This document shows, one piece after another, positions 9,847 to 54,742 of a DNA stretch of 62,576 bases. The DNA comes from Nitrososphaerota archaeon (GTDB lineage: Archaea; Thermoproteota; EX4484-205; JAAOZP01), in the NCBI GenBank assembly GCA_011605725.1, contig JAAOZP010000020.1:1-62576 (forward strand), in the 5' to 3' direction. Below the pieces are notes generated by a model. The model was not told the DNA's origin. It did not search any database and saw only the letters and a program-made list of their open reading frames with translations. How positions within the stretch are numbered: position 1 is the first letter of the stretch; the number at the start of each line of letters is the position of its first letter. Both the position numbers and the translations under genes were made by a program.

Positions 9847-12800
9847 AAGTAGTGTTTAAGTTTCTTCTGCGTGAGAAACGCATTATCTTCTTTCGTAAGA
9901 AAGAATGAAAGCTCCTTCTCCAGAAGCGCGAGGCTGCTTGAAAAATACGGGTCCAGACGATAAGATGCTAAAACCTTTTTCCCAAGAGTCAAGTACTTTT
10001 TAACACCACTTATATAAACTGTCGGAAGAAGCTCGCCCCCGCAAGAAGTGCATTTGGAAATAAGCGGGAGCCTCCTGAATTTTTTACCACACTTCTTGCA
10101 CCGGAATTTCTGAATATGAAACGTCTTAATGTTCCCTGAAATGTCTTTTAACAAATGAGAATTTAAAAGGTTTTCCGCAAAACCCTTTTCATCTATCCCG
10201 GTTAGGAGAGAAGTAACCTCCAGCTGTAGTTTTAGTTTTCTCTCCATAGAGCCTAAAGTACTATACACGTTTCTTTTAACACCTTTTACAATACTACTCG
10301 TATTATGAGACCAAGCTATGTTGAAGTCATCTTTACTAACTAAACGCATTATATCTAAAAGCTCCTTCGGCTTCACGCCTTGTTCCACAAGCAAGTAAAA
10401 ATCTTTATCATACTTTGTCATGTTCTCCATGTTATAGATCTGATCGTCTATTTCATCAGGTTTTAAAATAGGCATTATTATAAGTGGAGTATCCATCAAT
10501 CCTCCTGCAGCATCAGGAACATAATGCTTCGAGAAATTTAAGAAGGCGTCTAAGAGAAGAATTATAGAGTCCCCGTCTCCATCACAGTCTCTTCTTTTAG
10601 CCTGATGCCAGAAGGGGTGTGCAAAGACAACCTGTGAATCGGTGAAACCAATTATTCTACCCACGATGGCTCCAAGCGTATGAGGAGAAATCCCTAGGAT
10701 AAGATGACCAATAAGATCCTCTCTCGTCTTAATGTTGTAGTATGGCTCCACATGATAGAAAAGCCTGAGCTCCTCGTCAATAAAACTTGCAACTCTAACC
10801 AAAGAATCACCTATTTCTTTAGGAAGAATTACATCCTGGGGATAAAGGTATAGAAGCTGCTTACTTTCAGCAAGAGGATTGCCGTCAACATCCTTATCAT
10901 AGCCTAGTTTCTTCAACAATTCTACAGAAACCCCTATTTCCTCAGGCTTGAAAGCTGTTAAAGGAGCATTAGTAGCGTCGAATCGTATCGTTCCATCCTT
11001 GTATATCGTCAAACCGTGCTTAGCTCTAAGAATGCCTTTTTCAATCGGCTCAGGAACTTTATTCTTGTTCATTAACCCTTTTACCCCCTTTACTTCAGGA
11101 ATTGCGGTAATCCCAAGCGTCTTTTCAGCATCTTCTAAAATGCTTTGAAGTGGAACGTTTGTCGCATGAAAAGAGTTGCATTTACCTCTACATTTTTCGC
11201 ATTCTTCCGACTTAGAGTACGAATTACATTTTGCGCAATAGTATATGGGTATGGTACTAGACTTACACTGAGGACAATGCAAGTAGAAGGTAAGTTGGTT
11301 ACATTTTTCACAATACCTATTACAAATGTTTACGACTACGTGTCCATGGGATGCTGCAGCAACAATGTTTCTTTTTGGACCGCCTTCTAAACCTACTGGG
11401 AACAATACGTGAGAAGGAGGATCCATTTCCCTAAGTTTTGCTGCCTCAGGCCTTCCAAGTCTAGCAGATATAAAGGCTCCTTTTTTAGGCTTGATCTTAA
11501 ACTGGAGAACAGTGTTAAGATAATCGATAGAGTTTTTTTCGGAACCTGCCGGAGGCAAGGAGAATCTTGAAAGATATATTAGGAATTCAGCGTGCATTTT
11601 AGATAATCTAATATACCCGTTTTCAACCTGGAAAGGAAGACACATTTTCTCTAACTCGTCTAGCAAAGCACTATCCTCTATTGGAACAACAATATGATCT
11701 TCCTCAACCTTAGCCTTCTTGAAGCATTCAATCACGTGAAGAAGCTGGGAAGCGTCCAGATTATCTATGAAAAAGTAAAAGGCAGGGTGAAGAGGGATAT
11801 CTAGGGCCAAGCTTATCTGCAGGGCTGTTCCAAAATCAATATTGATAAATGGATTCTTAACGATATCCCAGAGGAAACTAGCCTCCAAAGGAAGGCTCTT
11901 AATCTTAGCCTCCTTATCCTTAAGGACGGCTTCAAGCTCCGCAGCCCATTGTTCTTCAGTGTATCCCACCTTGTCAAGTGGAGTGTTCCCCTCAATATAG
12001 TCACCTACAGATATTAGGATATCGCCAAGAAAAAGCACTTTAGAGATATTATGTTGAATCCTTTTAAGCTTATCCTCATTTTCAACAAGATACACAGAGC
12101 CGTCATGCGTCTTAACTATGGGAGGCATAATCGAATCCACAGGCATCACTATAGCTGATTTCCCAGGTCGATCTATCCTAAGCTGGGAGCCTATGGACAG
12201 GAATCCCCTGAGGAGCTCCATCGCCACAGGATGGATTCCCATTGCCATCAACCCGGTGTTTCTAGCTCTTCCATACCTTATTCTGAACCCTCCGAAAGCT
12301 TCAGAAGATGAGAAGAAAGGCCTCCCGATTAAAACCTCTTTGAGGTATTCTGACTTTGTGCTTTCAACCTCAATTCTAGATATCCAGGACCATCCGGATA
12401 TGTTAAGCTTATTGATTATACTTTCAAACTTCTTAACCCTACCAATTATGCCATCGTTTATAATTCTTAAAGCACCACCCCTAAGCCTGTTCGTCTCAAC
12501 TCTCGGAAGATCCCTATAAATGACCACCTCGGTTTCTTCAGAGGGTGGACCAGTAATCTCCACAGGAAGATTCTCTATAACTTCAGCAATTTGATCCTTA
12601 GCAACTTTATATTGAAACCTGTTTTTACCTCTCTCGTATAACCTTAATTCCTCCACGTAACGCGAAACCTCTTCCTTAGTAGGCTTGTATCTATCAAGTT
12701 TCAACACTCTTCTTATAAAGTCTGCGAGAATTATGGAGAGGGCTTGCTCCGTGCCTCCGGCAGACCTCATCGGTCCCGAGAAATAAACAGCCAAGTACCT

Positions 12801-13190
12801 AGTATTGTCAGCGTTCTTCTTTATCAGAACTTTCTCTATGCCCTCTATGGGGGCCGCTGTAGTTCCCGGGGGAGTCAATGAAGCAAGCGCAGCCTTCAAC
12901 GCTAGTTCCGCTGCTTTTTCTTCAGAAAATGACCCGAATCTTCCCAGTACGATGTCTTCAGCTATTTTGAATGGTATTTCAATCGGAGGCAGAGTTTTTT
13001 TAAGCTCCTCAAACCTTTCCCTAAACCCATTTAAGCCAAGTATCTTTTCGATTGTTTCAGCCTGGGAGAATGAGATTATAGATTCTGGTTTTTTCTCAGG
13101 ATCATAGCCATTTTCCTTAGCTCGGACGGCGTATCTGTATGCTTCCCAGAATCTCTCCCGTATAAAGTGGTTATATGCTTCGATATTCAT
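9843..13190 (-). CDS. polC: DNA polymerase D large subunit DP2 (no intein)
   Basis: GPMRSAGGT, GGFRIRYGR, KDGTIRFD, KRRDCDGDGD, GGLMDTPL, zinc clusters, 1115 aa. Confidence 0.97.
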   Translation of the reverse strand: MNIEAYNHFIRERFWEAYRYAVRAKENGYDPEKKPESIISFSQAETIEKILGLNGFRERFEELKKTLPPIEIPFKIAEDIVLGRFGSFSEEKAAELALKAALASLTPPGTTAAPIEGIEKVLIKKNADNTRYLAVYFSGPMRSAGGTEQALSIILADFIRRVLKLDRYKPTKEEVSRYVEELRLYERGKNRFQYKVAKDQIAEVIENLPVEITGPPSEETEVVIYRDLPRVETNRLRGGALRIINDGIIGRVKKFESIINKLNISGWSWISRIEVESTKSEYLKEVLIGRPFFSSSEAFGGFRIRYGRARNTGLMAMGIHPVAMELLRGFLSIGSQLRIDRPGKSAIVMPVDSIMPPIVKTHDGSVYLVENEDKLKRIQHNISKVLFLGDILISVGDYIEGNTPLDKVGYTEEQWAAELEAVLKDKEAKIKSLPLEASFLWDIVKNPFINIDFGTALQISLALDIPLHPAFYFFIDNLDASQLLHVIECFKKAKVEEDHIVVPIEDSALLDELEKMCLPFQVENGYIRLSKMHAEFLIYLSRFSLPPAGSEKNSIDYLNTVLQFKIKPKKGAFISARLGRPEAAKLREMDPPSHVLFPVGLEGGPKRNIVAAASHGHVVVNICNRYCEKCNQLTFYLHCPQCKSSTIPIYYCAKCNSYSKSEECEKCRGKCNSFHATNVPLQSILEDAEKTLGITAIPEVKGVKGLMNKNKVPEPIEKGILRAKHGLTIYKDGTIRFDATNAPLTAFKPEEIGVSVELLKKLGYDKDVDGNPLAESKQLLYLYPQDVILPKEIGDSLVRVASFIDEELRLFYHVEPYYNIKTREDLIGHLILGISPHTLGAIVGRIIGFTDSQVVFAHPFWHQAKRRDCDGDGDSIILLLDAFLNFSKHYVPDAAGGLMDTPLIIMPILKPDEIDDQIYNMENMTKYDKDFYLLVEQGVKPKELLDIMRLVSKDDFNIAWSHNTSSIVKGVKRNVYSTLGSMERKLKLQLEVTSLLTGIDEKGFAENLLNSHLLKDISGNIKTFHIQKFRCKKCGKKFRRLPLISKCTSCGGELLPTVYISGVKKYLTLGKKVLASYRLDPYFSSSLALLEKELSFFLTKEDNAFLTQKKLKHYF

Positions 13191-13959
13191 CTTTAGCGCT
13201 GCCTTTCTTCAATGCGCCTTTCCGCCCACCCTCCATTATCTCAGAAAGCTTCTCATCGAGAATGCTGGTTTCCTCCAAAACATCGCCTGTAACTATAACG
13301 TCAGCACCGGCAGAAACGACATTCTCCGCAGCTAAGCCATCTCTTATGCCTCCACCTACAATAAGCGGAATGCTAATACATTTTTTAACCATGGTTATCA
13401 ACTTTTCAGGAACATGCGACGTAGCACCAGAGCCTGCTTCAAGATAGATAAACCTGAAGCCAAGAGCTTCAGCAGCCATAGCGTAACCTACTGTTAACTC
13501 AGGTATTTCAAAAGGAAGAGGCCTGGCATCACCTATGTACCCAGCTGCACCGCCAGTACCGAGTATCAAGTAAGCCATCGGAATGGCTTCCAATCCTAAC
13601 TCCCTTATGGCCTTGATTCCAAGGACTTGTGCACCAATAATATAGTATGGATTTGACGAGTTTAGAAGAGACATGAACCAGATCGCATCAGCACCTCGAG
13701 CTATGCTTGCAACATTACTGGGGAAAATAATCACAGGTAGTTTTGAATTAGATTTAATCTTAACAATAGCCTCCTCATAGTCAGAAGTTCTGTGCGAAGT
13801 ACTTCCACCGACCATGAATGCAGATGTGCCAGAGGCCTCAGCCGCCCTAACTACTTCCTCAATCCTGCTCATTTTCTCAGGATCGATTAAGGTGATATGT
13901 ATGAAACCGTTCTCCTCGATCTTCTCGTACAAGTATTTTTCTGTCTTCCCTATTCGCAA
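13171..13959 (-). CDS. Geranylgeranylglyceryl phosphate synthase
   Basis: TLIDPEK, MVGGS, YLEAGSGA, VGGGIR. Confidence 0.95.
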   Translation of the reverse strand: MRIGKTEKYLYEKIEENGFIHITLIDPEKMSRIEEVVRAAEASGTSAFMVGGSTSHRTSDYEEAIVKIKSNSKLPVIIFPSNVASIARGADAIWFMSLLNSSNPYYIIGAQVLGIKAIRELGLEAIPMAYLILGTGGAAGYIGDARPLPFEIPELTVGYAMAAEALGFRFIYLEAGSGATSHVPEKLITMVKKCISIPLIVGGGIRDGLAAENVVSAGADVIVTGDVLEETSILDEKLSEIMEGGRKGALKKGSAKDEYRSI

Positions 13960-14004
13960 CCTGTTTAAAGCAAGTTAGAGAATATATAAATCTAAAAGCG
14001 TGCG

Positions 14005-14244
14005 CTAGGAAATCTCACCACTATGATATTTATCTACAAACCTATTGAAGTAATCAACATTCTCCATGTTCTTAACATATTCTAGAGTCGTTGCCAAGCT
14101 GCAATTACCACATACGACTCTCACACTTCCCGAAGCCTTGTCTTCAATAACAGAAACTGCTTGTATACCACATTTTGGGCAGGGAAAAATCTTTGGAATA
14201 ACCTTACGAATAACCTTAGCTTCTCTCCTTCTTCTTCTAGCCAT
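14005..14244 (-). CDS. elf1: Transcription elongation factor Elf1
   Basis: Basic N-terminus, FPCPKCG..CGNC zinc ribbon, VDYFNRFVD tail. Confidence 0.85.
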   Translation of the reverse strand: MARRRRREAKVIRKVIPKIFPCPKCGIQAVSVIEDKASGSVRVVCGNCSLATTLEYVKNMENVDYFNRFVDKYHSGEIS

Positions 14245-14375
14245 GTTTCAACATTCTCCACGCACCTATTTTTCCCTTTCTTCGCAGCCTGGTTGAAGAG
14301 AAGGAGTGCTCACGAAAATCCTATAGGGTATACAAAAAAGTATAACTACAGGTCGCCGTTAACAAAAATAGAAAT

Positions 14376-14765
14376 ATGGCAGAAAAGAACAGGAAAACCG
14401 ATATTATTATTGGAAAACTTTTAGAGGACTCGAACCTTACTCCGAAACAGCTTGAAGCCCTGTTACTATATTCCAGTAGCATAGAGCAGAGAATAGTCAA
14501 GAACGGATACGTAGATATTGATGGTAAAAAAGTCTCTAAAGGCGCCTTCTTCAGGATATTAAGCCAAGCCAAGAAAAACGTTAGAAAATCAATAGTTACA
14601 TTGATATTAATGTCATATACAGGCTTAATGGATGTAGATCAATTTAGTGCAATCATGCAAATTGCGAACATAATGATGCAATCCAAAGGTCAAGATGAGG
14701 ATTTGATTAGGACGCTCTTAGAAAAACTCAAAGTTATCGTTGACATTAGGAAAAGAGCAAAGTAA
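14376..14765 (+). CDS. Hypothetical HTH-like protein near oriC
   Basis: LTPKQLEAL..VSKGAFFRILSQA resembles a sigma-4/Tfx-type HTH. Confidence 0.6.
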   Translation: MAEKNRKTDIIIGKLLEDSNLTPKQLEALLLYSSSIEQRIVKNGYVDIDGKKVSKGAFFRILSQAKKNVRKSIVTLILMSYTGLMDVDQFSAIMQIANIMMQSKGQDEDLIRTLLEKLKVIVDIRKRAK

Positions 14766-14798
14766 AAATACCTTAGTCCAGCACAGGGTAAGCAAGCA

Positions 14799-15395
14799 AT
14801 GGATCTACTTAATCTTCTAAAGCGGCCAGGAGAAGAGATACGGAAAGAGAGAAAAAGAAAAGGGTTAACTCAGAGTTTACTAGCTAAAAAAGCAAAAGTA
14901 AGTCAAGCCTTAATAGCAAGGATTGAAAAACAACAGGTAGATCCGCGGCTTTCAACACTACGAAAGATCGTTGAAGCATTAATAGAGGAAGAAAACCAAA
15001 AGGGGACAAGAGCCATAGATATAGCAGTACGTGACGTCATAGTTGTGAATCATGATGATACTATTGAAAAAGCCGTTAAGCTCATGCGTAGATATGGCAT
15101 ATCGCAGCTACCTGTATTGAGGAATGGGACCCCGATAGGAGCAGTTGAGGAATTGGAACTTTTAAAGGCCTTTTCCAAGGAGAAAGATCTAGACAAATTT
15201 TATCAGAAAAAAGTGGTAGAAGCCATTTCATCAGTATACCCCATGGTAGAACCGGATACGAGCGTAACGGATGTTGTAGATTACCTTTTGAAGGGGCATA
15301 ATGCCGTTTTAGTAACCAGAAACGGGCGATTAGAGGGCATAATAACTAAGATTGACGTCTTGATGAAAAGTAAAAATATAATAGCATCAGTTTAG
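14799..15395 (+). CDS. XRE-type HTH plus CBS-pair transcriptional regulator
   Basis: LTQSLLAKKAKVSQALIARIE..DPRLST, followed by two CBS domains (ISQLPV, GIITKID). Confidence 0.93.
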   Translation: MDLLNLLKRPGEEIRKERKRKGLTQSLLAKKAKVSQALIARIEKQQVDPRLSTLRKIVEALIEEENQKGTRAIDIAVRDVIVVNHDDTIEKAVKLMRRYGISQLPVLRNGTPIGAVEELELLKAFSKEKDLDKFYQKKVVEAISSVYPMVEPDTSVTDVVDYLLKGHNAVLVTRNGRLEGIITKIDVLMKSKNIIASV

Positions 15396-15407
15396 CATCA
15401 AAAACAG

Positions 15408-15866
15408 ATGGTATCATTATTCGGAAAGGGGAAGAAAGAAGTCGAGGAAAGACTTTTAGAGTTGAAAGAGAAGAATGACGCCTTAGAAAAAAGACTTGAC
15501 GAAACGCTAGAGAAACTAGAGAAACTAGAAAGGGGAGCGAGACTATTAACAGAAGCGGTTTATAAGATAATCACTTACCTGAAAGATCTCGAGTCGTCGA
15601 AAGAAGAAGTAAGGCAAGAATTAGAAGAGAAACCCTTCGAAACAATTAGAAAGAAAGAATCTTCAAGGGAAGAGTATCTTACTGAAACAGAGGAGAAACT
15701 CATAGATGAAATCAGGAGTAAAGGAATGTTGACTGTAGGCGAATGTTACATGCGTGTGGGAAGATCAAAGGAACATGTAAGCAGAATGTTAAAAAGACTC
15801 GTTGAAAAAGGCATTTTAAAAAGAGAAAGAAGGGGCAAAACTTTTTACTATAAGCTCGCCGAGTAA
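15408..15866 (+). CDS. Coiled-coil plus winged-helix protein
   Basis: Heptad-rich N-terminal half; SKEHVSRMLKRLVEKGILKRERRGKTFYY wHTH. Confidence 0.75.
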   Translation: MVSLFGKGKKEVEERLLELKEKNDALEKRLDETLEKLEKLERGARLLTEAVYKIITYLKDLESSKEEVRQELEEKPFETIRKKESSREEYLTETEEKLIDEIRSKGMLTVGECYMRVGRSKEHVSRMLKRLVEKGILKRERRGKTFYYKLAE

Positions 15867-15875
15867 TGAATGATG

Positions 15876-16343
15876 CTATTCATTTTTTAGAAGAATGGTT
15901 GCAACTTGGTAAATGTATTCTCTTCCTCTTTTTCTTCTCACTAGGAACCCCTTATCATGCAGCCTCATCAGATAGGTGGCGACTGTACTCAGTTGGATAG
16001 GTTTACCGATTCTCTCTTCATATCTATTCTTAACGTCTTTTGAAGAGAAATCCATATTTCTAAATTCTCTTATAACTTTCAAAATATTGCTTAATGTTTC
16101 TCCCTGTTTGCGTAATACTTCAAAGACGTATCCGTCATTAGTTTTCTTCATTATTTTTTCCTGAGACGAAATGGAAAGCACATCTTGGTTAAGAGTTTCC
16201 CGTAGAAGCATTAATGGAAGAAGATTGGGAAGTATTGATGCATATTTATCGAGACCCTCTCCTTCCAACCTAAGTGAGATAAGTACGTCTGAACCATCGG
16301 AAAAACGGATCTCAAGTTTTTTCCCGCTATCTCTGTTAATCAC
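15876..16343 (-). CDS. Winged-helix DNA-binding protein flanking oriC
   Basis: LSTVATYLMRLHDKGFLVRRKRGREYIY (BlaI/ArsR-like wHTH). Confidence 0.75.
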   Translation of the reverse strand: MINRDSGKKLEIRFSDGSDVLISLRLEGEGLDKYASILPNLLPLMLLRETLNQDVLSISSQEKIMKKTNDGYVFEVLRKQGETLSNILKVIREFRNMDFSSKDVKNRYEERIGKPIQLSTVATYLMRLHDKGFLVRRKRGREYIYQVATILLKNE

Positions 16344-16399
16344 AGCGTTCAGCTGATTTTTGGATATAACTTAGGTAAATAAGTGTTAACAAGCAGTTT

Positions 16400-16860
16400 T
16401 TCCAGTGGAAATAAAAAAGCTTAAAACGCAGTTGTTTTTAAAAAAACGATGCGATTCACAGGGTTTCTTCTACAAAAAGCAGAAAAAAGTGAAGCTTTCC
16501 AAGTTCCAGTAGAAATGCAGGGGTGAGGGTTAAATACAGAAGAAGAGAGAGAAAAAAGAAGTAAGTTAAGGAAAAACGAAAAACGAGGGGAAGAAAAGAA
16601 GGAAGGAGGGAAAAGGACAGGAAGAAAACACATCTTCAGAAGAGAACAGAAAAAGATCCCCTACACCCCTTCATTTCTTTTGAAAAAGAATCTGGGAAAA
16701 AGAATCTCTGGAAAATAAAATTTATCTTAAACTAAAAGATACTTAATGAAAGCTTTTTATTCTCTGCACCATTGAAAGAAGCAGTGTGGAGAATAATTAT
16801 CTCTAAATTTTTAAATGAATCTCTCCTAAAAGCGTGTGGAGAAGAAATAGAGGGGTGCGA
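16400..16860. other. Replication origin (oriC) with ORB elements and an AT-rich unwinding region
   Basis: TTCCAGTGGAAAT (16400), GTTCCAGTAGAAATGCAGGGGT (16503-16524), inverted TTCAAAAGAAATGAAGGGGT (16665-16684), AGAAGAAATAGAGGGGT (~16840-16856); AT-rich 16710-16830; directly upstream of cdc6. Confidence 0.9.
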
Positions 16861-16945
16861 GCGACTTGTTACTATTTTTTTGTACCTTTTTCTCTAAACA
16901 ATTCTCCAATTCATTTTTCTTTAGAAAGAAGTCTCCAGCTTTCTA

Positions 16946-18163
16946 ATGGAGGCTGCGAAGGAAAGCACTGAAATACTGAATAAGGTATTCAACAACATGT
17001 TTTTGAAGAGCAACATTTTCCGCAATAGAGATGCTTTAAGACACGATTATATTCCTGATCATCTTCCCCATCGCGAAAACGAGATTAAGTATATTGGTGA
17101 GGTCGTAGCTCCTCTTCTTCTTCATAATAAGGCCTCTAATCTGTTTGTTTACGGTAAACCCGGGACAGGGAAAACAGCTGTTGTAAGATTTGTGTTTAAT
17201 GCTCTTTCTAAAAAAGCTACCGAGTTGAGAGCAAATATAAAATGTGTCATGGTTAATTCAAGGATAGAGGGTTCAGAATACAGGATCCTTGCGTCAATAT
17301 CGCGGCAAATAGGGCTTTCTATACCTTTCACAGGGTTGGCTACTGCTGAGGTTTTCAGAAGGATTATTAACTATATAAAAGCCAACAACCTTTATCTTCT
17401 TATTGCCTTGGATGAGGTTGACGTAATCGTTAAAAAAGAAGGAGAAAACTTGCTCTACGAACTTTCGAGGATTAATGAATACTTTTCTTCTCACCGGGTT
17501 TCTTTCATAGGAATTTCAAATGAAATAATGTTCAAGCAGATTCTCGATCCGAGAATATTGAGTGCTTTAAGCGAAGAGGAGCTTGTTTTCAAACCGTATA
17601 CTTCAGACGAGCTTTTCGATATTCTTTCTGAGAGGGCTAAGGAAGCATTTTTTGATGCTGTTTGTGACCCATTGGTAATAAAATATATTGCAGCGCTTTC
17701 TGCTTCTGAGCATGGGGATGCAAGAAGAGCGCTTGACCTACTTCGAGTGGCGGCTGAGACAGCGGAGAGAGCGGGTAAATCAGCTATAACGACAGAGTGT
17801 GTGCAGGAAGCCATTAGGAAGATAGAGAGGGATCAGGTTAACGAAGTTATAAAAACACTTCCGATTCAGAGCAAGATTCTCTTAGTTTCTATTTTAAGAA
17901 ATCTCAGAGATCAGGGTGCTCAGCATACCAGTGGAGAAATATATGCTGAGTACAGGAACCTTGTTGCAAATATTGGTTTAGAACCGTTGACTGACAGGAG
18001 GCTTTCTTCTTTGCTTAACGAGCTGGAATCAGCGGGAATAATCTCCTCAAAACTCGTTAACATGGGTAGGTATGGAAGAACTAAAAAGTATAGCCTTTCA
18101 GTCCCTCAAAGCCATGTTTTAGAAGCATTGAGGGAAGACACCCTTCTAAACGGTCTTTTATAG
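16946..18163 (+). CDS. cdc6: Orc1/Cdc6 replication initiator
   Basis: YIPDHLPHRE, GKPGTGKT, LDEVD, HGDARRALDLLR, wHTH GRYGRT. Confidence 0.98.
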   Translation: MEAAKESTEILNKVFNNMFLKSNIFRNRDALRHDYIPDHLPHRENEIKYIGEVVAPLLLHNKASNLFVYGKPGTGKTAVVRFVFNALSKKATELRANIKCVMVNSRIEGSEYRILASISRQIGLSIPFTGLATAEVFRRIINYIKANNLYLLIALDEVDVIVKKEGENLLYELSRINEYFSSHRVSFIGISNEIMFKQILDPRILSALSEEELVFKPYTSDELFDILSERAKEAFFDAVCDPLVIKYIAALSASEHGDARRALDLLRVAAETAERAGKSAITTECVQEAIRKIERDQVNEVIKTLPIQSKILLVSILRNLRDQGAQHTSGEIYAEYRNLVANIGLEPLTDRRLSSLLNELESAGIISSKLVNMGRYGRTKKYSLSVPQSHVLEALREDTLLNGLL

Positions 18164-18263
18164 GGAAGAAAAGCCTATGCTTCCAGGGTTTCGTTTCGAT
18201 TCTGCGGAAAACATAAAAAGCAAGAGGGCACACACAGGGTTCAAGTCCCTTCCCAGCGCTCCA

Positions 18264-18273
18264 AGCGCGCGCT
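18264..18273. repeat. Palindrome AGCGCGCGCT, copy A
   Basis: Exact 10-bp palindrome immediately before the radA fragment. Confidence 0.9.
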
Positions 18274-18274
18274 C

Positions 18275-18430
18275 GGAACTGGGAAGACCCAGCTCCGCCA
18301 CACTTTATGCGTGACAGTCCAGCTTCCTAAGGACAGGGGCGGGTTGGAGGCGGGTGCTCTCTTCATAGATACTGAGGGAACGTTCAGGCCTGAGAGGATT
18401 GTGCAGATAGCCAAGAGCACCCTAGGACTT
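18275..18430 (+). pseudogene. radA: Internal fragment of radA (Walker A to RPERI)
   Basis: Translates to [48 protein letters not shown]; no start codon; both ends missing. Confidence 0.9.
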
Positions 18431-18432
18431 GG

Positions 18433-18881
18433 ATCTGCATGGAATGCCTCGAGATCGCCAGGAGGTACACTATTAGGCTCAGCGAGATAATCGAGGAGAA
18501 CTACAGTAACATTGTGATTGTCTTCAGCGGAGCTGGGGCTTCCATATTCATGTGCTCGACTTCGAGGTTAGGGGCTGGACTTATTATAATGAGCATGACC
18601 CTGTTAAGAGCCACGAGGTCGCAAGGTTCTGCTACACGCTCCACCTCTCTAGACAACTTGACACACGTTTCGACGAGCCACACTTCACCCTCTCAATGAG
18701 AGTGATCTCTATTCCATATTCTCTCAACGGCTCAACCATGCTTGTCTGCAAACCCATAGGGAGCAGGTTGGACCTCGAGAGGAAGAGCGTAACCCGTATT
18801 CTGGACGAGGCAAACCCCTCCCTAGAGATATGGCCCGTTAAAGTTACCCCTGAGCATGAATGCGATGAACATGAGCGCTAA
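18433..18881 (+). pseudogene. Frameshifted, 5'-truncated AEP (PriS-like) primase-polymerase fragment
   Basis: CMEC, VIVFSG then (after frameshift) GFHIHV, and RVISIPYSLNG, matching AEP motifs II/III. Confidence 0.7.
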
Positions 18882-19073
18882 AAACAGGGCTGCCGGAGGA
18901 AGGGGTAACCCTGTGAAGGCGGTCCTAACTCTTAGCAAATGCTAATTTTAATCCTCCATGCCTCATGGAAAAAAAATAATTGGTTTTTTCTTTCCCCTAC
19001 ACATAACTTTGCGCTTCATATAAGTGTGAATAAATCTATTTCTTATTCAACAGTTAAAAAGTGCACATGAGGA

Positions 19074-20608
19074 CTACAGTGCCAATAGAAGCTTGACTCC
19101 TTCAAGCCTCAGCAAATCTTCATCAACATCTCCTTTTTTCTTAATGGATTCTCTAAATTGCTTCATAATCCATGCCCCTACCTTATCATCCGCATTCTCT
19201 AGTTTTTCGGCAAGTTCGTCTAACTCTTTTAAGAGCTCATCAAAGCTTTTTTCGTTCCTTAAGTATTTTGCAATTGCTTCTACAGCAAGCGCAATGAATC
19301 GGCTGGTTACTCTCATCTTTTCAAGTCTTTCATAAGCATTTTGAATTAGTTCATGTACTTCATCAGATAATTTTCCTTTCTTAAAATCACTTAATCCAAA
19401 AGTCATCTTAATGTATGCTAAAGTTAACTCGTAGCATGCTTTCAAGTATTCATCAGGTCCTTTCTTAACAATTTCTATCGAATCTTCAACAAACTTTATG
19501 GCATCGTCATCACGTTTCAAAGCTAGACAACAAATAGCCATGCAATGTTTAGCAGAGGCCACACCATATTTATCTCCTATTTCTTCAGAAATTTTGATGC
19601 AATCCTCAAGACTAATTCCTTCTACTTCTTCATAAACTTTCTTAAAATCGTCTTTGTTTTTGGCAAGCATCATTTGAATTTTAGCTAAATGAGCTCTACC
19701 TGCAGCCGCATTTAGTCTATTCTCCGCCTTTAGAGCATATATAATACAATTCTTTACATATTCTCGGGCTCTTTTTAAGTCGTCCTCAGATTCTGCTATA
19801 TCAAGCGTTAGTACCCCAAGTCTATCCATAATTACAGATTTATCATTATAGTATCCTTTCTCACCCCATCTATTTATTATTTTATCCTTATGGTATTCTA
19901 ACAGCCTTTCTACTTCTTCTAGAACTCTTAACGCCTCTTTTAAATCTCTCTTACGACGAAGTAAATCTGACTTAACCGTCAGTATGGCAGAGTATGCACT
20001 ATACCACTTCAGCTCATCTTTAATCTTTCTTGAATCCTTACTTCCAACTTCTTTAAGAGCTTTCTCTAGAGACGAATCAGCTTCTTTAGTATTGTTTAAT
20101 GAATGTAGAGCATAGAAAGCCCATGCTATCATTGCAAATGCATAGTGATACCTTGCCGAGTCTTCATCTAACTTAAGCGCCTTTGGAAATGCTTCATTCA
20201 CTTTGTTATACAAAGTTCTAGCTTCCTCCTCTGGAATTAACAGTTCGTAAGCATATCTTAACGCATGTTCAGCCATAAACAGTGCTTCAATCCACGCTTC
20301 TAATTTTTCAGAATAGTATAGTGCCTTCTCCCCATATTCATATGCCATCAAAGGAATATGTTTATAATATCCATAATTTGCTAGCACATACGAGCTTGCA
20401 AATGCAACTTTCATTAACTTTTTGCTCTCTCCTTTAAGCGTTATGATTTCTTCCGCTTGGTAAAAAATTTCTTCATTCACAAAAGCTTTTTCCCCGTCTA
20501 CTACGAGATTTTTGTCTATTTCTCTTAGAATTTCTAGGATTTTTTTCTCGAGCTTTCTTGAAGTTTTCTACTTGCGAATAAGCAACTTCTTTCACCATAT
20601 CGTGACTA
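19074..20608 (-). pseudogene. TPR-like helical repeat region, 3' part of a probable STAND/AAA ATPase-TPR gene (open ORF 19074..20480)
   Basis: Ala/Leu-rich helical repeats; upstream, across a frameshift, SHDMVKEVAYSQ resembles the STAND wHTH motif HxLxRExAY; sequence is cut at palindrome B; AT-rich. Confidence 0.65.
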
Positions 20609-20618
20609 AGCGCGCGCT
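20609..20618. repeat. Palindrome AGCGCGCGCT, copy B
   Basis: Exact copy separating two truncated, divergent gene fragments. Confidence 0.9.
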
Positions 20619-20882
20619 ATCAAAATACTAAAGAGAATGAGTGAATACTTCATAGAAAACAAAAAACCTGTCCATATAGTATGTAGCCTCTATGATGAAT
20701 TACCGTCATTTAGAATGACATTTATTGGAGACCAGAAATTACTCATAACGTCTTATGAGAAAGGAAAGCGAACAGGCCATGAAACCGTATTCTATGAAAT
20801 ATCTCCTCAAATGCAAACATTATTCGATGGCTTTACTTAGGAATATCAAAAGATCGAGGCTCGCTCAAGGCGTGTGTTGTAG
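20619..20882 (+). pseudogene. C-terminal fragment of an unknown (possibly DUF5919/PLD-like) protein
   Basis: Frame IKILKRMSEY..LYDELPSFRMTFIGD..FDGFT*EYQKIEARSRRVL* begins at palindrome B; its final TAG overlaps palindrome C. Confidence 0.5.
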
Positions 20883-20891
20883 CGCGCGCTA
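20880..20891. repeat. Palindrome TAGCGCGCGCTA, copy C
   Basis: 12-bp palindrome; AGCGCGCGCTAT is shared with copy B. Confidence 0.9.
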
Positions 20892-21068
20892 TTGGAGATA
20901 AACCGATCTTCTTAGCAACAATATCTCTAGCTTTACCTTGCTCGTTGTGGCCATTTGACCCCAACGATACCCTTAGGTTCATTTGAACTTAAGGGGGTCT
21001 TGCCATGCGTTCTCCCCAGTTCTATCTGTCTCTGCCTTGCAAGCTCCCTCTCAATCCTCTAGAAGAGG
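20891..21068 (-). pseudogene. Fragment of a ParB/Spo0J-like HTH protein of mobile-element type
   Basis: Frameshifted IERELARQRQIELG..QGKARDIVAKKIGLSP, truncated at palindrome C. Confidence 0.55.
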
Positions 21069-21094
21069 ACAGGTTAGTCGAGGACAGGTTAGTC
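21065..21094 (+). repeat. Perfect 15-bp tandem duplication GAGGACAGGTTAGTC x2
   Basis: Read directly from the sequence. Confidence 0.95.
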
Positions 21095-21103
21095 CATTTT
21101 TGC

Positions 21104-21220
21104 ACCACTTCACTATGCTGCAAAAATGGTTCATACACATATCGTCGAGCTATTGATCAAAATGGGAGCTGACCCTAACATTAGGAATAAAGATGGAAAG
21201 ACACCGGCCGATGTCGCCCC
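21104..21220 (+). pseudogene. Ankyrin-repeat fragment
   Basis: PLHYAAKNG / (frameshift) HTHIVELLIKMGADPNIRNKDGKTPADVA. Confidence 0.75.
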
Positions 21221-21224
21221 GAAG

Positions 21225-21929
21225 GTGAGCCTGAATTTCCTCGAGAAATTAAGGGATTACCTGAATGAGAGGCTGAAGGACGAGGTGCTCTACTTTGGGT
21301 TTAAGCCGTTTAGAATAGTGAAATATCAAACAGGAGACCTAGAGGTACATACGGAAAGCATAACAGCAGTTAGGTCTGTAGAGTTTCGTGCCGATGGAAC
21401 GATAGCCGTGGAATCAGAACTGGTGGACAAGGGCGGGGACTACATAGGTGAACGCTTAGTTAAGAATTATCGTCGGAGGTTTAAGGAGGCTGAAGCCAAG
21501 GGTAAGGAGGAAGAGGATAAGGTTTGGAAAGCCCTTGATAAGAAGAAGAAAGAGATATATAGGGACTACATCAACAGGAAGAACTTAGAGAAGCATCTTA
21601 AGAAGAACTACAGGGAAGCCTTCATAAGACTATTATGGTTCGACGAGGTAGCTAAGAGAGTTTCGAAGGAATATGGGATTGATGTCAAAGTGGAAATTGA
21701 TGAGATCGATTATGATTCCGGATTAATATCGGAGTTCGATGGAAGCAATATGAGCGAGGAGGAGAAGCTCGAGGAGATTAAGAAGAGGGTTGAGGCCATT
21801 ACAGCTGCGTATAAGCTCGCGTACAGCGCTTATGGGACATATGGATGGATATCGGAGGAAAATCATAAGAAATACCTTGAGTTCAGAAAAGCCCTACTCG
21901 AGAAATTGAAGAGCGTGAAAAAGATTTAA
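21225..21929 (+). CDS. Hypothetical charged protein (likely GTG start at 21225, fused in frame to the ankyrin remnant)
   Basis: Lys/Glu-rich ORF; GTG codon in frame just after the ankyrin piece. Confidence 0.55.
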   Translation: MSLNFLEKLRDYLNERLKDEVLYFGFKPFRIVKYQTGDLEVHTESITAVRSVEFRADGTIAVESELVDKGGDYIGERLVKNYRRRFKEAEAKGKEEEDKVWKALDKKKKEIYRDYINRKNLEKHLKKNYREAFIRLLWFDEVAKRVSKEYGIDVKVEIDEIDYDSGLISEFDGSNMSEEEKLEEIKKRVEAITAAYKLAYSAYGTYGWISEENHKKYLEFRKALLEKLKSVKKI

Positions 21930-22094
21930 AGAGTAGATGCCGCAAGGCCGGAAAGATGTTTCCAGGCAAGGGGATATGGCGCATTTGGCGAAGACGGGTT
22001 TCGAGAGCGCGTTACTCCTCAACGCAAGGCCCGTTACCATTAATGTAAGCCCAAAAGCATGACTGTAGATCTGAAAATAACTCGGCTGGAAAAA

Positions 22095-22213
22095 TGGCGA
22101 GGGCCGGATTTGAACCGACGACACCCCGGTATCGACATATTTCTATATTTATATTCTTCAGCCGGGCGCTCTTGGGAATGTTTTTATTCTCTCCCAGGCT
22201 GAGCTACCTCGCC
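22095..22213 (-). tRNA. tRNA-Phe(GAA) with two introns (22/23: 22171-22190; ~37/38: 22131-22155)
   Basis: Acceptor stem GGCGAGG/CCTCGCC, anticodon arm CCCGG-CTGAAGA-CCGGG, GGTTCAAATCC; the D-arm intron has a perfect TGGG/CCCA BHB helix. Confidence 0.92.
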
Positions 22214-22615
22214 TTCTTCTATTCACGTCCAAGATCCTATATTTTAATTTTGCTCTCCCGAGAGGTTAGAGATATTTTTATTTGTTCTTCTGGTTTTTAA
22301 GGCTTGTTCAACCGGTTTTTCAAATTTTAGAGCCTCCGTGTTTTTGCTCCTGAAAAAAAGGGTTAGGCTTCGATTTTTAATACTGTTCGTATTGCTGATG
22401 ATCCTGACTTCTGGAAAACGTTTAAAAATACTGGTACACTTGATGTTGGGGCTAAAATTTCCTGTTGTTTCGGGTGTTCTGTCTATTCAGCTCCGTGTTC
22501 TTAACAAGCCTCTATTCGTATTCAAGATAAATAGGTGCTCGTGCTGTTTTTAGTTAGGCGATTCCGGTAGGAAGACATAAATTGTGCCTGTATTCCCTTT
22601 TTGGAGGTTTAAGCA

Positions 22616-25357
22616 ATGAAGCATGATTTCAGCGAGGACGAGTATCGTCTGGAGTTCCTGATTAGAGGAGGGTTCACCAGAAGAAGATGCGTTAAATGCG
22701 GCAGGTTCTTCTGGACTCTCGACCCGTCTAGGGAAGACTGCGGAGAGTCTCCCTGCTCACCCTATACTTTCATTGGCAAGAGGGTGGGCAGGAGTATGGA
22801 TGATCTGAGCCAAGTTAGGGATGCTTTCCTGGGCTTTTTCAGGAAGAGAGGGCACGAGGTTGTTTCACCCTATCCTGTTGTATGTAGGTGGAGAGATGAT
22901 CTTTACCTTACTGACGCGAGCATAGTTGATTTCCAGCCTTATGTTACGGACGGCATTATTCCTCCCCCGGCTAATCCCTTGGTAATTTCCCAGCCATGTA
23001 TACGTCTGGTTGACATCGACCTGGTTGGAAAGACTCTCGGAAGGCATCTTACAATTTTCGAGATGGGTGGTCACCATGCTTTCAACAGTGGGGAAAAAGA
23101 GGTCTATTGGAAGGAGGATACTGTGAGATACGGCTTTGAATTCTTCACGGGGGAGATGGGGGTTAAGGGTGAGGATCTTTCTTTTGTCGAAAGCTCTTGG
23201 AGTGGAGGTGGGAATGCTGGGCCCTGCTTCGAAGTTATTTCACACGGCCTGGAGGTTGCGACCCTAGTCTTCATGAGGTATAAGGTTTATCCCGATGGTT
23301 CTCTGAGGGAGCTGCCTATTCGAACGGTTGACACAGGATACGGGATGGAGAGGATAAACTGGCTTTTAACCGGTGCTCCCACAGGCTTCCATGCTTTCTA
23401 CGGCAGGCTTCTTCAAGAGGCTTCTAAGCTGGTAGACATTGAGGTCCCCTCTGAGCTTCTAAGGGAGTATGGAGTCAGGGTTTCCCTCTCTGAGAGCAAG
23501 TTCCTCAGCCCGGTGGAAAGGATTAGGCTTGTCAGGGATCTCGAGCTCCCCGACTCTTTTTCAACTAAGCTTGAGACTATGGAGAATGTTTTCAAGGCTC
23601 TGGATCATGTTAAGAGCCTAGTGTTCATTCTTTCAGAAGGCGTTGTGCCTTCTAACACTGGAGTGGGCTATCTGGCTAGGCTGCTCGTCAGAAAGACGGC
23701 TAGGGTCTTGGATAGGCTTAATGTTAACTCTCTCCTGCTCGACATGGTTTCATGGGAGGTTGACTACTGGAGCAGGGATTTTCCGGTTCTTAAAGAGCTT
23801 AAAGACAGTATCCTGAGGCTCGTCGAAATAGAGCTTAAGAAATATAGGAGGAGTGTTGAAGAGGGTGTTAAGCATGTCGAATCTCTCGTTAAAGAATCAG
23901 GGTCAATAAGTGTTGAGAAGCTTATTGAGCTCTATGATTCTCACGGTGTTACGCCTGAGCAGGTCGCAGATGTTTTCTCAAAGAAAGGCGTTGAAATAAG
24001 GATTCCGGAGGATTTTTACAGCATGATAGCATCTAGGCATAAACAGCCTAAGAGCCTTGGGGAAAGGGAAGGGGTCACGCTAGACCTCGACGAAAAGACT
24101 TTCCCTGAAACCTTGAAATTCTATTACAAGAATCCTGATTTACTGGAACTCGAGGCCCGGGTTCTTGGGGTTTTCGAAGACAAGGTTATTCTCGACCAAA
24201 CGGTCTTCTATCCTGAGGGCGGTGGCCAGCCTGCTGACAACGGTAGGCTCATATTTAGCGGGAAAGAGGCTCTGGTGAAAGATGTTAAGAACTTGAATAA
24301 CCGTATAATACATTTCATCGAAGGCCCTGCTCCTGATGCAGGCAGTATTGTTAAAATGGTTGTTGACGCTGAAAGGCGTCTCCAGCTTAGAAGAGCCCAC
24401 ACTGCGACGCACATCGTAAACGCTGCTGCCAGAATGGTGCTGGGTAACCATGTTTGGCAAGCAGGCGCCCAGAAAGATACTGTTGAATCCAGACTTGACA
24501 TAACTCACCCTCTCCCACTTACAAGTGAAGAGGTTGAGAAGATAGAGCGTAAGGCCAATGAAATAGTCTTGTCAAACATTGATGTTAAAATACAGGTTCT
24601 GCCTAGAACTATCGCAGAGAAGGAGTATGGTTTCAGAATATACCAGGGTGGTGCTGTCCCTGGTAAAGAACTCAGGATCGTCAAGATAGATGGTTTTGAT
24701 GCTGAAGCATGCGGTGGGCTTCACGTTAATAAGACGGGTGACATTGGGCTGGTGAAGATAGTTAGAGTCGAGAGGATTCAGGACGGCGTTGAAAGAATAG
24801 TTTTTCGAGTAGGTTTCTCCTCCCTAGATTACGTTAGGTCGCTTGAAAACAAAATATCTAGCTTAGAGAATATTCTGGGCGTTCCAAAGGACAAGATAGT
24901 TCAGGAGGCTGAAAGAGTCAGGAGTGAGTTGAAAAACCTAAGTAAGAAGCTTGAAAGAGTGTTGGAGAACCAGTTTGACATGCTGGCAGACAGGCTGCTT
25001 CACAGGGCTATTGAAGAATCCGGTGTTAAAATCGTGCTCTACAGCTCTGAAGAGCTCGAGATAAACCATCTTATAAGCCTCGGCGAGAGAATCTCTGAGA
25101 AGGAACCGAGCTCCCTGACAGTCGTGATGTCCCTCGTTCCAACTGCCCAGTTCGCCGTGTTCGCCGGTGAAAAAGCCCTTGAGAAGGGTGTCGACTGCTC
25201 CATTTTGGCGCGCCGTATTCTCAGCGAAATCGGAGTTGGCGGAGGGGCTGGAGGCAGGAGGAACTTTGCGAAAGGAGGCCTAGCTACTAAGGTTGACACT
25301 AAAGTCTTCGAGTCAAAGGCTTTAAAAGCGATAATCAATGTCCTTCAAAGAGGTTAA
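22616..25357 (+). CDS. alaS: Alanine--tRNA ligase
   Basis: SQPCIR, FEMGGHHAFN, DTGYGMER, HTATH and ACGGLH editing motifs. Confidence 0.98.
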   Translation: MKHDFSEDEYRLEFLIRGGFTRRRCVKCGRFFWTLDPSREDCGESPCSPYTFIGKRVGRSMDDLSQVRDAFLGFFRKRGHEVVSPYPVVCRWRDDLYLTDASIVDFQPYVTDGIIPPPANPLVISQPCIRLVDIDLVGKTLGRHLTIFEMGGHHAFNSGEKEVYWKEDTVRYGFEFFTGEMGVKGEDLSFVESSWSGGGNAGPCFEVISHGLEVATLVFMRYKVYPDGSLRELPIRTVDTGYGMERINWLLTGAPTGFHAFYGRLLQEASKLVDIEVPSELLREYGVRVSLSESKFLSPVERIRLVRDLELPDSFSTKLETMENVFKALDHVKSLVFILSEGVVPSNTGVGYLARLLVRKTARVLDRLNVNSLLLDMVSWEVDYWSRDFPVLKELKDSILRLVEIELKKYRRSVEEGVKHVESLVKESGSISVEKLIELYDSHGVTPEQVADVFSKKGVEIRIPEDFYSMIASRHKQPKSLGEREGVTLDLDEKTFPETLKFYYKNPDLLELEARVLGVFEDKVILDQTVFYPEGGGQPADNGRLIFSGKEALVKDVKNLNNRIIHFIEGPAPDAGSIVKMVVDAERRLQLRRAHTATHIVNAAARMVLGNHVWQAGAQKDTVESRLDITHPLPLTSEEVEKIERKANEIVLSNIDVKIQVLPRTIAEKEYGFRIYQGGAVPGKELRIVKIDGFDAEACGGLHVNKTGDIGLVKIVRVERIQDGVERIVFRVGFSSLDYVRSLENKISSLENILGVPKDKIVQEAERVRSELKNLSKKLERVLENQFDMLADRLLHRAIEESGVKIVLYSSEELEINHLISLGERISEKEPSSLTVVMSLVPTAQFAVFAGEKALEKGVDCSILARRILSEIGVGGGAGGRRNFAKGGLATKVDTKVFESKALKAIINVLQRG

Positions 25358-54604: not shown

Positions 54605-54742
54605 AAAGCTAAGATGAAGGGCGTTGAAGCGCGCATAAAAAGTGCTTAATTTTTTTAGGATTTATGGGTATAACATGTTACCAAACCACTCTAATGTGAT
54701 AGCCCTATCTCTCTATGTATTTCACAATCAATCTCATTAATC

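Follow-up and report, generated by a model that had tools for sequence, protein, structure and literature searches.

Little is settled about the way in which archaea, without Ku, join broken DNA. In bacterial non-homologous end joining, the polymerase domain of LigD, a member of the superfamily of archaeo-eukaryotic primases (AEP), acts with Ku and leaves no sequence-defined scar; telomerase, formed by TERT and telomerase RNA, is known to add telomeres de novo at breaks; and short palindromes that are greatly over-represented in one lineage are known as HIP1 and REP/REPIN. The subject of this study is a set of short alternating GC tracts that sit at the joints of gene fragments in a hot-spring archaeon of the Brockarchaeota lineage, together with a small PriS-like AEP and a pseudoknotted RNA that may write them. 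The stretch analysed, referred to as the window, is the entire 62,576-nucleotide (nt) contig C12 of assembly G000, a 2.23-Mb, 20-contig metagenome-assembled genome (MAG) of Candidatus Brockarchaeota.

The likeness to telomerase lies in the proposed RNA-templated addition of short repeats to DNA 3' ends, in a variable repeat number that implies slippage or re-alignment, and in a short single-stranded candidate template next to a pseudoknot, here the pairing of two arms, H1a and H1b, which encloses the motif GCGC[U/A]A. The differences are that the protein linked to the RNA is a primase small subunit of family PF01896 and not a reverse transcriptase such as TERT, and that the product is self-complementary and lies internally, at chromosomal joints, instead of forming an end cap; nothing suggests linear chromosomes. 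With LigD the proposed system would share an AEP-fold polymerase devoted to joining broken ends, whereas no Ku or ligase fusion is present at the two loci inspected. HIP1 and REP elements occur in collinear sequence or with longer conserved units, whereas the tracts described here coincide with breaks in homology, and the parents of the joined pieces do not have them.

Two further systems are close in other respects. In Saccharolobus islandicus, PriSL carries out microhomology end joining by terminal transfer, microhomology annealing and extension, which places a PriS-family enzyme in archaeal double-strand-break repair and is a precedent for the reading proposed here; PriSL differs in being the replicative primase, with PriL and PriX, with no RNA partner and no fixed filler (PMC12019639). 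The preprint on DRT10 describes a bacterial reverse transcriptase that, with a noncoding RNA, makes tandem-repeat DNA by protein priming in phage defence; the two systems are alike in pairing a prokaryotic polymerase with a structured noncoding RNA whose features dictate, or in ours would dictate, repeat synthesis, and differ in that ours has an archaeal AEP and a product that marks genomic joints (bioRxiv 10.1101/2025.10.16.682844). A full-text literature search found no description of these tracts or of the AEP-RNA pair, and a telomerase-like gluing of DNA ends by an AEP and an RNA has, as far as the literature was searched, not been described before.

Alternating GC tracts at the joints of gene fragments

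The initial annotation of the window had noted three identical 10-bp palindromes within 2.6 kb, at 18264, 20609 and 20881, and had taken them for a linker or scar that was not part of the donor genes. The three copies are as described: AGCGCGCGCT occurs exactly at 18264-18273, 20609-20618 and 20881-20890, and dinucleotide shuffles of the sequence contain it 0.04 times on average, with 0 of 100 shuffles reaching three. Across G000 the 10-mer is found 88 times, where an order-2 Markov model expects 0.9, and (GC)4 is found 229 times, where the same model expects 7.4 (a maximal-order Markov expectation was dropped for palindromes, as enriched sub-words masked the signal). The genome has several hundred alternating GC tracts, which are 6-16 nt long; their consensus is TA(GC)nTA, and outside TA...TA the flanks of the 88 copies are unique.

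The comparison within the genus includes six relatives rich in the 10-mer and seven genomes with zero copies of it, all of them Candidatus Brockarchaeota MAGs from separate studies, sites and assemblers (with NODE_ and k141_ contig names). The six carry 118, 70, 33, 32, 18 and 16 copies; among the seven with none, three are 91-93% complete. Counts of the reversed control are 0-3. The count in this genome and in related MAGs that the initial annotation had called for has thus brought out a strong, lineage-limited excess (88 copies here; 16-118 against 0). JGI metagenome contigs carry the same tracts.

Tracts avoid intact open reading frames (ORFs): an ORF of at least 600 nt spans 10% of tract sites, against 77% of random sites. 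For a genome-wide breakpoint test, the 300 nt surrounding each of 306 tracts of at least 7 nt were aligned to the rest of the genome, with 609 positions shifted by 130 nt as controls. At 27 of the 306, a paralog alignment stops no more than 4 nt from the tract (35 alignments in total), and a single alignment crosses a tract; among the shifted controls, such ends occur at 8 of 609 positions and 75 alignments cross. Since paralog alignments end at tracts and almost never run through them, the tracts are breakpoints and not parts of repeated units.

Within the window, the three tracts lie in a variable patch (18225-22546) between cdc6 and alaS, enclosed by two blocks that are 81-86% identical in relatives; the conservation extends beyond cdc6 to 18224, and positions 12000-18224 are 81-84% identical in G002, G006, G008 and G016. 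The features are as follows.

16946-18163, + strand: orc1/cdc6 gene (Pfam Cdc6_C, Cdc6_lid, AAA), which terminates the block conserved in relatives
18225-18263, + strand: tRNA 3'-end-like piece of 39 nt (T-arm and acceptor strand, tRNA-Ser-like), left of tract A
18264-18273, no strand: tract A, A(GC)4T, linking the tRNA-like piece to the radA piece; its last T may be the radA parent's
18274-18411, + strand: radA fragment from mid-Walker A, about 46 codons, 89.9% identical in nucleotides to locus L158
18405-18411, + strand: AGATAGC, the 7-nt microhomology at which about 0.8 kb was deleted internally
18412-18881, + strand: 3' part of a PriS-like AEP gene, a pseudogene remnant with a frameshift near 18531-18537 and no DxD motif
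18843-18926, + strand: structured RNA, sole copy in the assembly, between tracts A and B
18927-19073, + strand: 3' tail of the RNA, which has two hairpins (a small one, UUAGCA/UGCUAA, and another) and a T-run near 18984-18989, followed by the joint to the 3' end of the TPR gene
19074-20608, - strand: C-terminal TPR half of a STAND-type gene, with at least the first 459 codons gone and a frameshift in 20480-20543
20609-20618, no strand: tract B, A(GC)4T, between the STAND/TPR and DUF5919 pieces
20619-20880, + strand: DUF5919-family gene piece of 262 nt, residues 465 to about 548 of 553
20881-20890, no strand: tract C, A(GC)4T, which at this site has the complete 12-nt form TA(GC)4TA
20891-21058, - strand: frameshifted coding remnant (...GKARDIVAKKIGLSP), cut at tract C, of unverified identity

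Four of the six tract flanks could be traced to intact parents, one to radA, one to a STAND/TPR gene with no fewer than 969 aa and two to a DUF5919 gene of 553 aa, and at every traced flank the homology ends no more than about 10 nt from the tract. Both parents that are available as DNA (host radA and the STAND/TPR gene of G024) have no tract at the breakpoint; the DUF5919 parent is known solely as a protein. At tract A, positions 18273-18411 (139 nt) are a copy of host radA (G000:C7:378384-378522), 90.6% identical in nucleotides, which begins within the Walker A codons (G-T-G-K-T), a point at which the parent has no tract; the early observation of radA starting mid-Walker A after this copy is thereby borne out. 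On the other side, where relatives have an intact tRNA-Ser(CGA) directly after cdc6, the window holds the 39-nt tRNA-like piece, for which no parent was found in G000 or in five relatives (allowing up to three mismatches in the relatives).

Tract B had been placed between a cut STAND-TPR gene and a headless ORF; homology starts at the tract on both sides, and the ORF proves to be the DUF5919 fragment. The TPR gene is 69% identical to its intact homolog on contig C109 of G024, from residue 460 onward (SHGMIKEAAYS), and this residue corresponds to window position 20607, at the base adjoining the tract. On the far side, the DUF5919 homology opens at the first codon past the tract, with 20619-20837 aligning to residues 465-537 of P0001, the 553-aa DUF5919 protein, at 81% identity; no relative of this piece was found among 300 genomes of the phylum. 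Tract C fares differently from its first description, in which it abutted the stop codon of this fragment and a ParB-like fragment on its other side. The TAG at 20838-20840 is in frame but premature: beyond it the homology extends to about 20870 (EYQKIEARS vs EYQRIEACS), and the tract cuts the DUF5919 gene 4-5 codons before its natural end. The ParB-like label for 20891-21058 could not be verified: Pfam gives no match even at E 10, tblastn finds no paralog in the genome, and a search of 5.8 billion proteins returns nothing.

The view of the motif as a scar at joints, outside the donor genes, thus stands at every flank for which a parent was found and in the genome-wide test; homology stops at the tracts, and the DNA parents lack them. 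The tracts are in all likelihood de novo fillers at junctions. Further tracts of the window are AA(GC)5AA close to the contig end (61786-61795) and AAGCGCGCAT (54627-54636).

A PriS-like AEP and a conserved pseudoknotted RNA

Contig C7 of G000 encodes, overlapping and following the host radA, a 280-aa PriS-like AEP that scores 31.7 bits against PF01896 (cut-off 26.8). Its profile matches the archaeal PriS structures 9f28, 9f26, 1g71 and 1v33 at E about 1e-10, and these are its closest solved relatives. Motif I (DxD) and motif II (SGxxGxH, here SGxxGFH) are kept, together with an HEH...CxxC zinc knuckle; in alignment A1 the residues D112, D114, S162, G163, G166, F167 and H168 are invariant. A separate canonical PriS of 377 aa is encoded on C11, and the 280-aa AEP is thus not the replicative PriS of this genome.

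Positions 18274-18881 of the window are a decayed second copy of the radA-AEP cassette, made up of the radA piece, the microhomology deletion and the AEP 3' part; the deletion took the rest of radA and the N-terminus of the AEP including the DxD motif, and the closest intact parent is L158, on a related Brockarchaeon contig, at about 86-88% nucleotide identity. The adjacency of radA and the AEP is confined to Brockarchaeota loci, and was rejected as a general functional link.

The initial annotation had suggested looking for a recombinase or primase family that accompanies the motif, and within the genus the small PriS-like AEP does track the tracts. It turns up in G000, G002, G006, G007, G012 and G016, and as fragments in G008. 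With the sole exception of G009, each genome of the genus that has six or more copies of the 10-mer thus holds the AEP whole or in pieces; the seven zero-copy genomes yielded no AEP.

Stray pieces of the AEP 3' end are present elsewhere, in G000 at C4:117050-117128 (- strand) and C20:62031-, and at least three each in G016 and G002. The C4 piece enters the first arm of the RNA hairpin and ends at GTGCGCAC; the C20 piece begins exactly at an AGCGCGCGCT. Such pieces suggest either an unusually frequent capture of the AEP-RNA locus or retro-copying. A phylum-wide count of GCGCGCGC was set aside as uninformative, as its control, CGCGCGCG, likewise consists of alternating GC and the outcome is swamped by GC-rich genomes. 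Three genomes, G145, G108 and G088, hold GCGCGCGC well above CGCGCGCG (95/34, 39/7 and 39/9) and no such AEP at E <= 1e-20; their excess could be unrelated, or the work of a different writer.

At and after the stop codon of the AEP lies a structured RNA element, conserved behind AEP copies in G002, G006 and G016. About 25 metagenome contigs and one Bathyarchaeia MAG have the same architecture behind AEP homologs with identities of 37-50%. Its order from 5' to 3' is H1a; UGAGCC; a small hairpin; a GAUGA box; GCGC[U/A]A and, after it, AAAC; the 5' arm of the main hairpin, P2; H1b and a second GAUGA; and the P2 3' arm. The parts of the window copy, all on the + strand, are:

18843-18850: H1a, pairing with H1b
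18850-18868: CUGA...GAUGA boxes
18873-18880: candidate template GAGCGCUA
18881-18885: linker AAAAC
18886-18894: P2 5' arm
18902-18909: H1b, forming the pseudoknot with H1a
18918-18926: P2 3' arm

The RNA forms a genuine family, which is linked to the AEP. P2 is preserved by at least 12 different arm sequences, and H1a:H1b by three variants (GGUUACCC/GGGUAACC, NCUCACCC/GGGUGAGG and UGUCACCC/GGGUGGCU) with two compensatory positions; in 22 of 23 sequences at least 7 of the 8 positions pair, as tallied per sequence by a script, the MAFFT alignment having shifted H1b by one column from one RNA class to another. The pseudoknot encloses GCGC[U/A]A, which takes the form GCGC-U-A or GCGC-A-A/U and is predicted to be single-stranded, just 5' of the main hairpin. 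The RNA is better conserved than the adjoining pseudogene (94.5% against 84% in G002, 88% against 76% in G006), and the similarity of its 3' tail to G002:C5 stops near 19038. Rfam has no family for it; with E values up to 1, the only match in 16000-24000 of the window was a tRNA.

Covariance model R1 gives 90.8 bits at 18861-18933, its sole match in G000, and a scan of the whole assembly by regular expression and pseudoknot likewise returns the window copy only. Within the genus, R1 matches G000, G002, G006, G007, G009, G010 and G016, and none of the zero-copy genomes. The AEP at radA has lost the element in G000 and G002, where the only RNA copies stand behind AEP pseudogenes. Some genomes have stand-alone copies behind a TTTAAAAA box: L151 (G002:C43), L154 (G016:C58), L148 (G009:C56) and L149 (G007:C10).

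The 5' hairpin of the stand-alone copies, AGCGUGCA...UGCACGCU, is perfect. In two of them UAGCGCGCU stands about 15 nt 3' of P2, ahead of a segment with complementarity to the P2 3' region, and this could be an alternative template site. The paired CUGA/GAUGA boxes (18850-18868 and 18910-18916) flank the small hairpin and follow H1b, by eye, in every lineage; their resemblance to K-turn or C'-D' motifs hints at L7Ae binding. In G006 a GCGCGCGC lies some 45 nt 3' of the hairpin; it was considered as a template and rejected, as the sister copies (L044 and G010) diverge exactly there, and is probably itself a scar.

A proposed templated tailing and its alternatives

The reading we favour, by a little better than even chances, is that the AEP and the pseudoknotted RNA write the tracts by RNA-templated, self-complementary tailing of broken ends, which then anneal. 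The writer would consist of the small stand-alone AEP (whose gene follows radA on C7) and the RNA at 18843-18926. A free DNA 3' end would align on the single-stranded stretch GAGCGCUA, between the box motif and the main hairpin; the AEP would copy this stretch, adding (T)A-GCGC to the end, with slippage yielding a variable GC length; two ends tailed in this way, with self-complementary GC tails, would anneal in any orientation; and the gaps would be filled and sealed, giving end1-TA(GC)nTA-end2. A self-complementary tail would explain the mixed orientations of the joined fragments. Polymerase activity on an RNA template, tailing, annealing and ligation are what we infer from the sequences.

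If the RNA is the template, the base beside the GC tract should follow the base beside GCGC in the RNA. The tract flank does change with the RNA motif across lineages: where the RNA has GCGC-U (a Brockarchaeon contig and three GCGCUAAGAAC contigs), tract flanks read CT 53 times and CA 8 times, and where it has GCGC-A (two metagenome classes, and the Bathyarchaeia MAG over 317 kb), they read CT 24 times and CA 70 times (Fisher p 2e-14; 5 of 5 groups in the predicted direction). The lineages in this comparison are few, and their contigs extremely tract-rich (for example 35 tracts in 31 kb). In G000 the flanks are CT 542 times and CA 103 times. The RNA motif is not itself a scar, since it has a fixed place within a covarying pseudoknot across distant lineages. 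Other RNAs read GCGCGUA (L196 and L167) or GCUAGCUA (L166). In the Bathyarchaeia MAG G031 an expected enrichment of ATGCGCAT was absent (17 matches, 14 in the control); the signal there is (GC)4-7 with CA flanks.

Several observations weigh against the proposed mechanism. The candidate template holds 4 GC bases and the tracts have 6-16 nt, so that slippage must be assumed. The RNAs of G006 (GGGCUA) and G010 (GUGCUAAC) depart from the motif, yet both genomes carry A(GC)nT tracts; that of L171 reads GCGCC but the flanks are mostly CT; and the RNAs of G007 and G009 read CGCUU, while their tracts favour CTA over CTT, as in all kin, for which reason the idea that the second flank base follows these stand-alone RNAs was rejected. 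The failed predictions within the genus could reflect old scars from an ancestral RNA, or a wrong model. G008 has 33 copies of the 10-mer with only AEP fragments and no RNA match, and G009 and G010 have an RNA match without an AEP match; these three exceptions are MAGs of 89-93% completeness. The window RNA has no obvious promoter of its own and stands behind a dead gene, and two joints of the patch, 18224/18225 and the deletion at 18405-18411, have no GC filler. Finally, the tract-rich genomes are the closer kin of G000, being the sole givers of nucleotide-level radA matches, and the association of AEP and tracts is therefore partly confounded by descent, a concern that the independent carriers in Bathyarchaeia and metagenomes lessen.

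Some of these points would be accommodated if the AEP or another polymerase made the GC tails without an RNA template, by terminal transfer and self-primed slippage, with the RNA acting as a regulatory 3' untranslated-region element or in another role. The terminal transferase activity of PriSL (PMC12019639), the variable tract length and the failure of several within-genus template predictions speak for this, but it leaves unexplained both the switch of the T/A flank with the RNA motif in five lineage groups and the conservation of a single-stranded GCGC[U/A]A in a pseudoknot across AEPs that are only 40% identical, and we consider it unlikely, if worth keeping in mind. The synthesis is probably RNA-templated. 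Of the suggestion in the initial annotation that AEP primases synthesise alternating GC without template during break repair, the enzyme family is upheld by its co-occurrence with the tracts, and the absence of a template is not, an RNA template in the same interval being probable.

The remaining explanations would have the tracts precede the breaks or owe nothing to joining. A minimal mobile or recombination element, REP/RAYT-like or the core of a site-specific recombinase, at which pre-existing tracts break, would fit palindromes that are dispersed, clustered in variable regions and placed at module edges; but there is no conserved sequence outside TA...TA, intact parents have no site at the breakpoints, only one paralog alignment crosses a tract, the patch holds no recombinase or transposase, and a recombinase core would not range over 6 to 16 nt, all of which makes this distinctly improbable. 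The recombinase core and the hairpin-opening footprint put forward at the outset thus find no support, there being no extended consensus, no fixed length and no recombinase gene nearby; the accompanying observation that no integrase or transposase is visible holds for the ORFs of 14-25 kb. We give scarcely any credence to a HIP1-like iterated palindrome built up by point mutation under selection (for methylation, restriction or protein binding): the strong over-representation and its limitation to a lineage would suit it, but the tracts avoid intact genes, coincide with homology breaks, are absent from the parents and vary in length. That contigs were made chimeric through an adapter-like GC sequence during library preparation or assembly is very unlikely, and the least credible of these readings; all sequences are indeed from MAGs or metagenome contigs, but the tracts recur across separate studies, sites and assemblers and on JGI contigs, other MAGs of the same genus lack them, their flank consensus is lineage-specific and their presence tracks a gene. 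An exact-protein look-up brought up no second assembly of the locus made independently.

Surroundings of the locus and implications

The spacer after cdc6 (18164-18224; L036/L037/L038) is a rearrangement hot spot: in G006 and G002 it runs on into an intron-bearing tRNA-Ser(CGA), in G016 via ttgca-CGCGC-tgag into a different, inverted tRNA, and in G000 into the patchwork. At G000:C20:38678-40994, in a tract-rich zone, ARAGORN reports a tRNA-Ser(CGA) with a 2.2-kb 'intron', which may be the tRNA found after cdc6 in relatives, split here by insertion. To the right of tract C, 21068-21097 is a perfect 15-nt tandem duplication (gaggacaggttagtc twice), just upstream of an ORF (21126-21929) that opens with the remnant of an ankyrin repeat; G016, G002, G006 and G008 hold many paralogs of this ORF at the nucleotide level. 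An intron-bearing tRNA gene at 22095-22213 (- strand; Rfam, 45.6 bits) was missed by default ARAGORN and mis-typed by its intron-aware mode.

As genome scars, the tracts explain the patchworks of gene fragments in these MAGs. Beyond this, we see an evenly balanced case for a telomerase-like AEP ribonucleoprotein that, in Brockarchaeota, Bathyarchaeia and other uncultured archaea, writes a short self-complementary tail on any broken end, which lets any two ends anneal and be joined, and drives the capture of foreign fragments, with the TA(GC)nTA scars across the genome as its record. In this reading the two genes, which in G000 lie apart (the enzyme gene on C7, the RNA gene in the window), would have become separated. 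The system, a single protein of 280 aa and a single RNA of about 90-150 nt, lends itself to a direct test. If true, a primase-family enzyme with a dedicated RNA template would have been shown, and with an RNA-templated AEP the principle of telomerase would have been invented a second time, independently, on a primase fold instead of a reverse transcriptase. A sequence-defined scar would then be a readable genomic record of end-joining and DNA-capture events.

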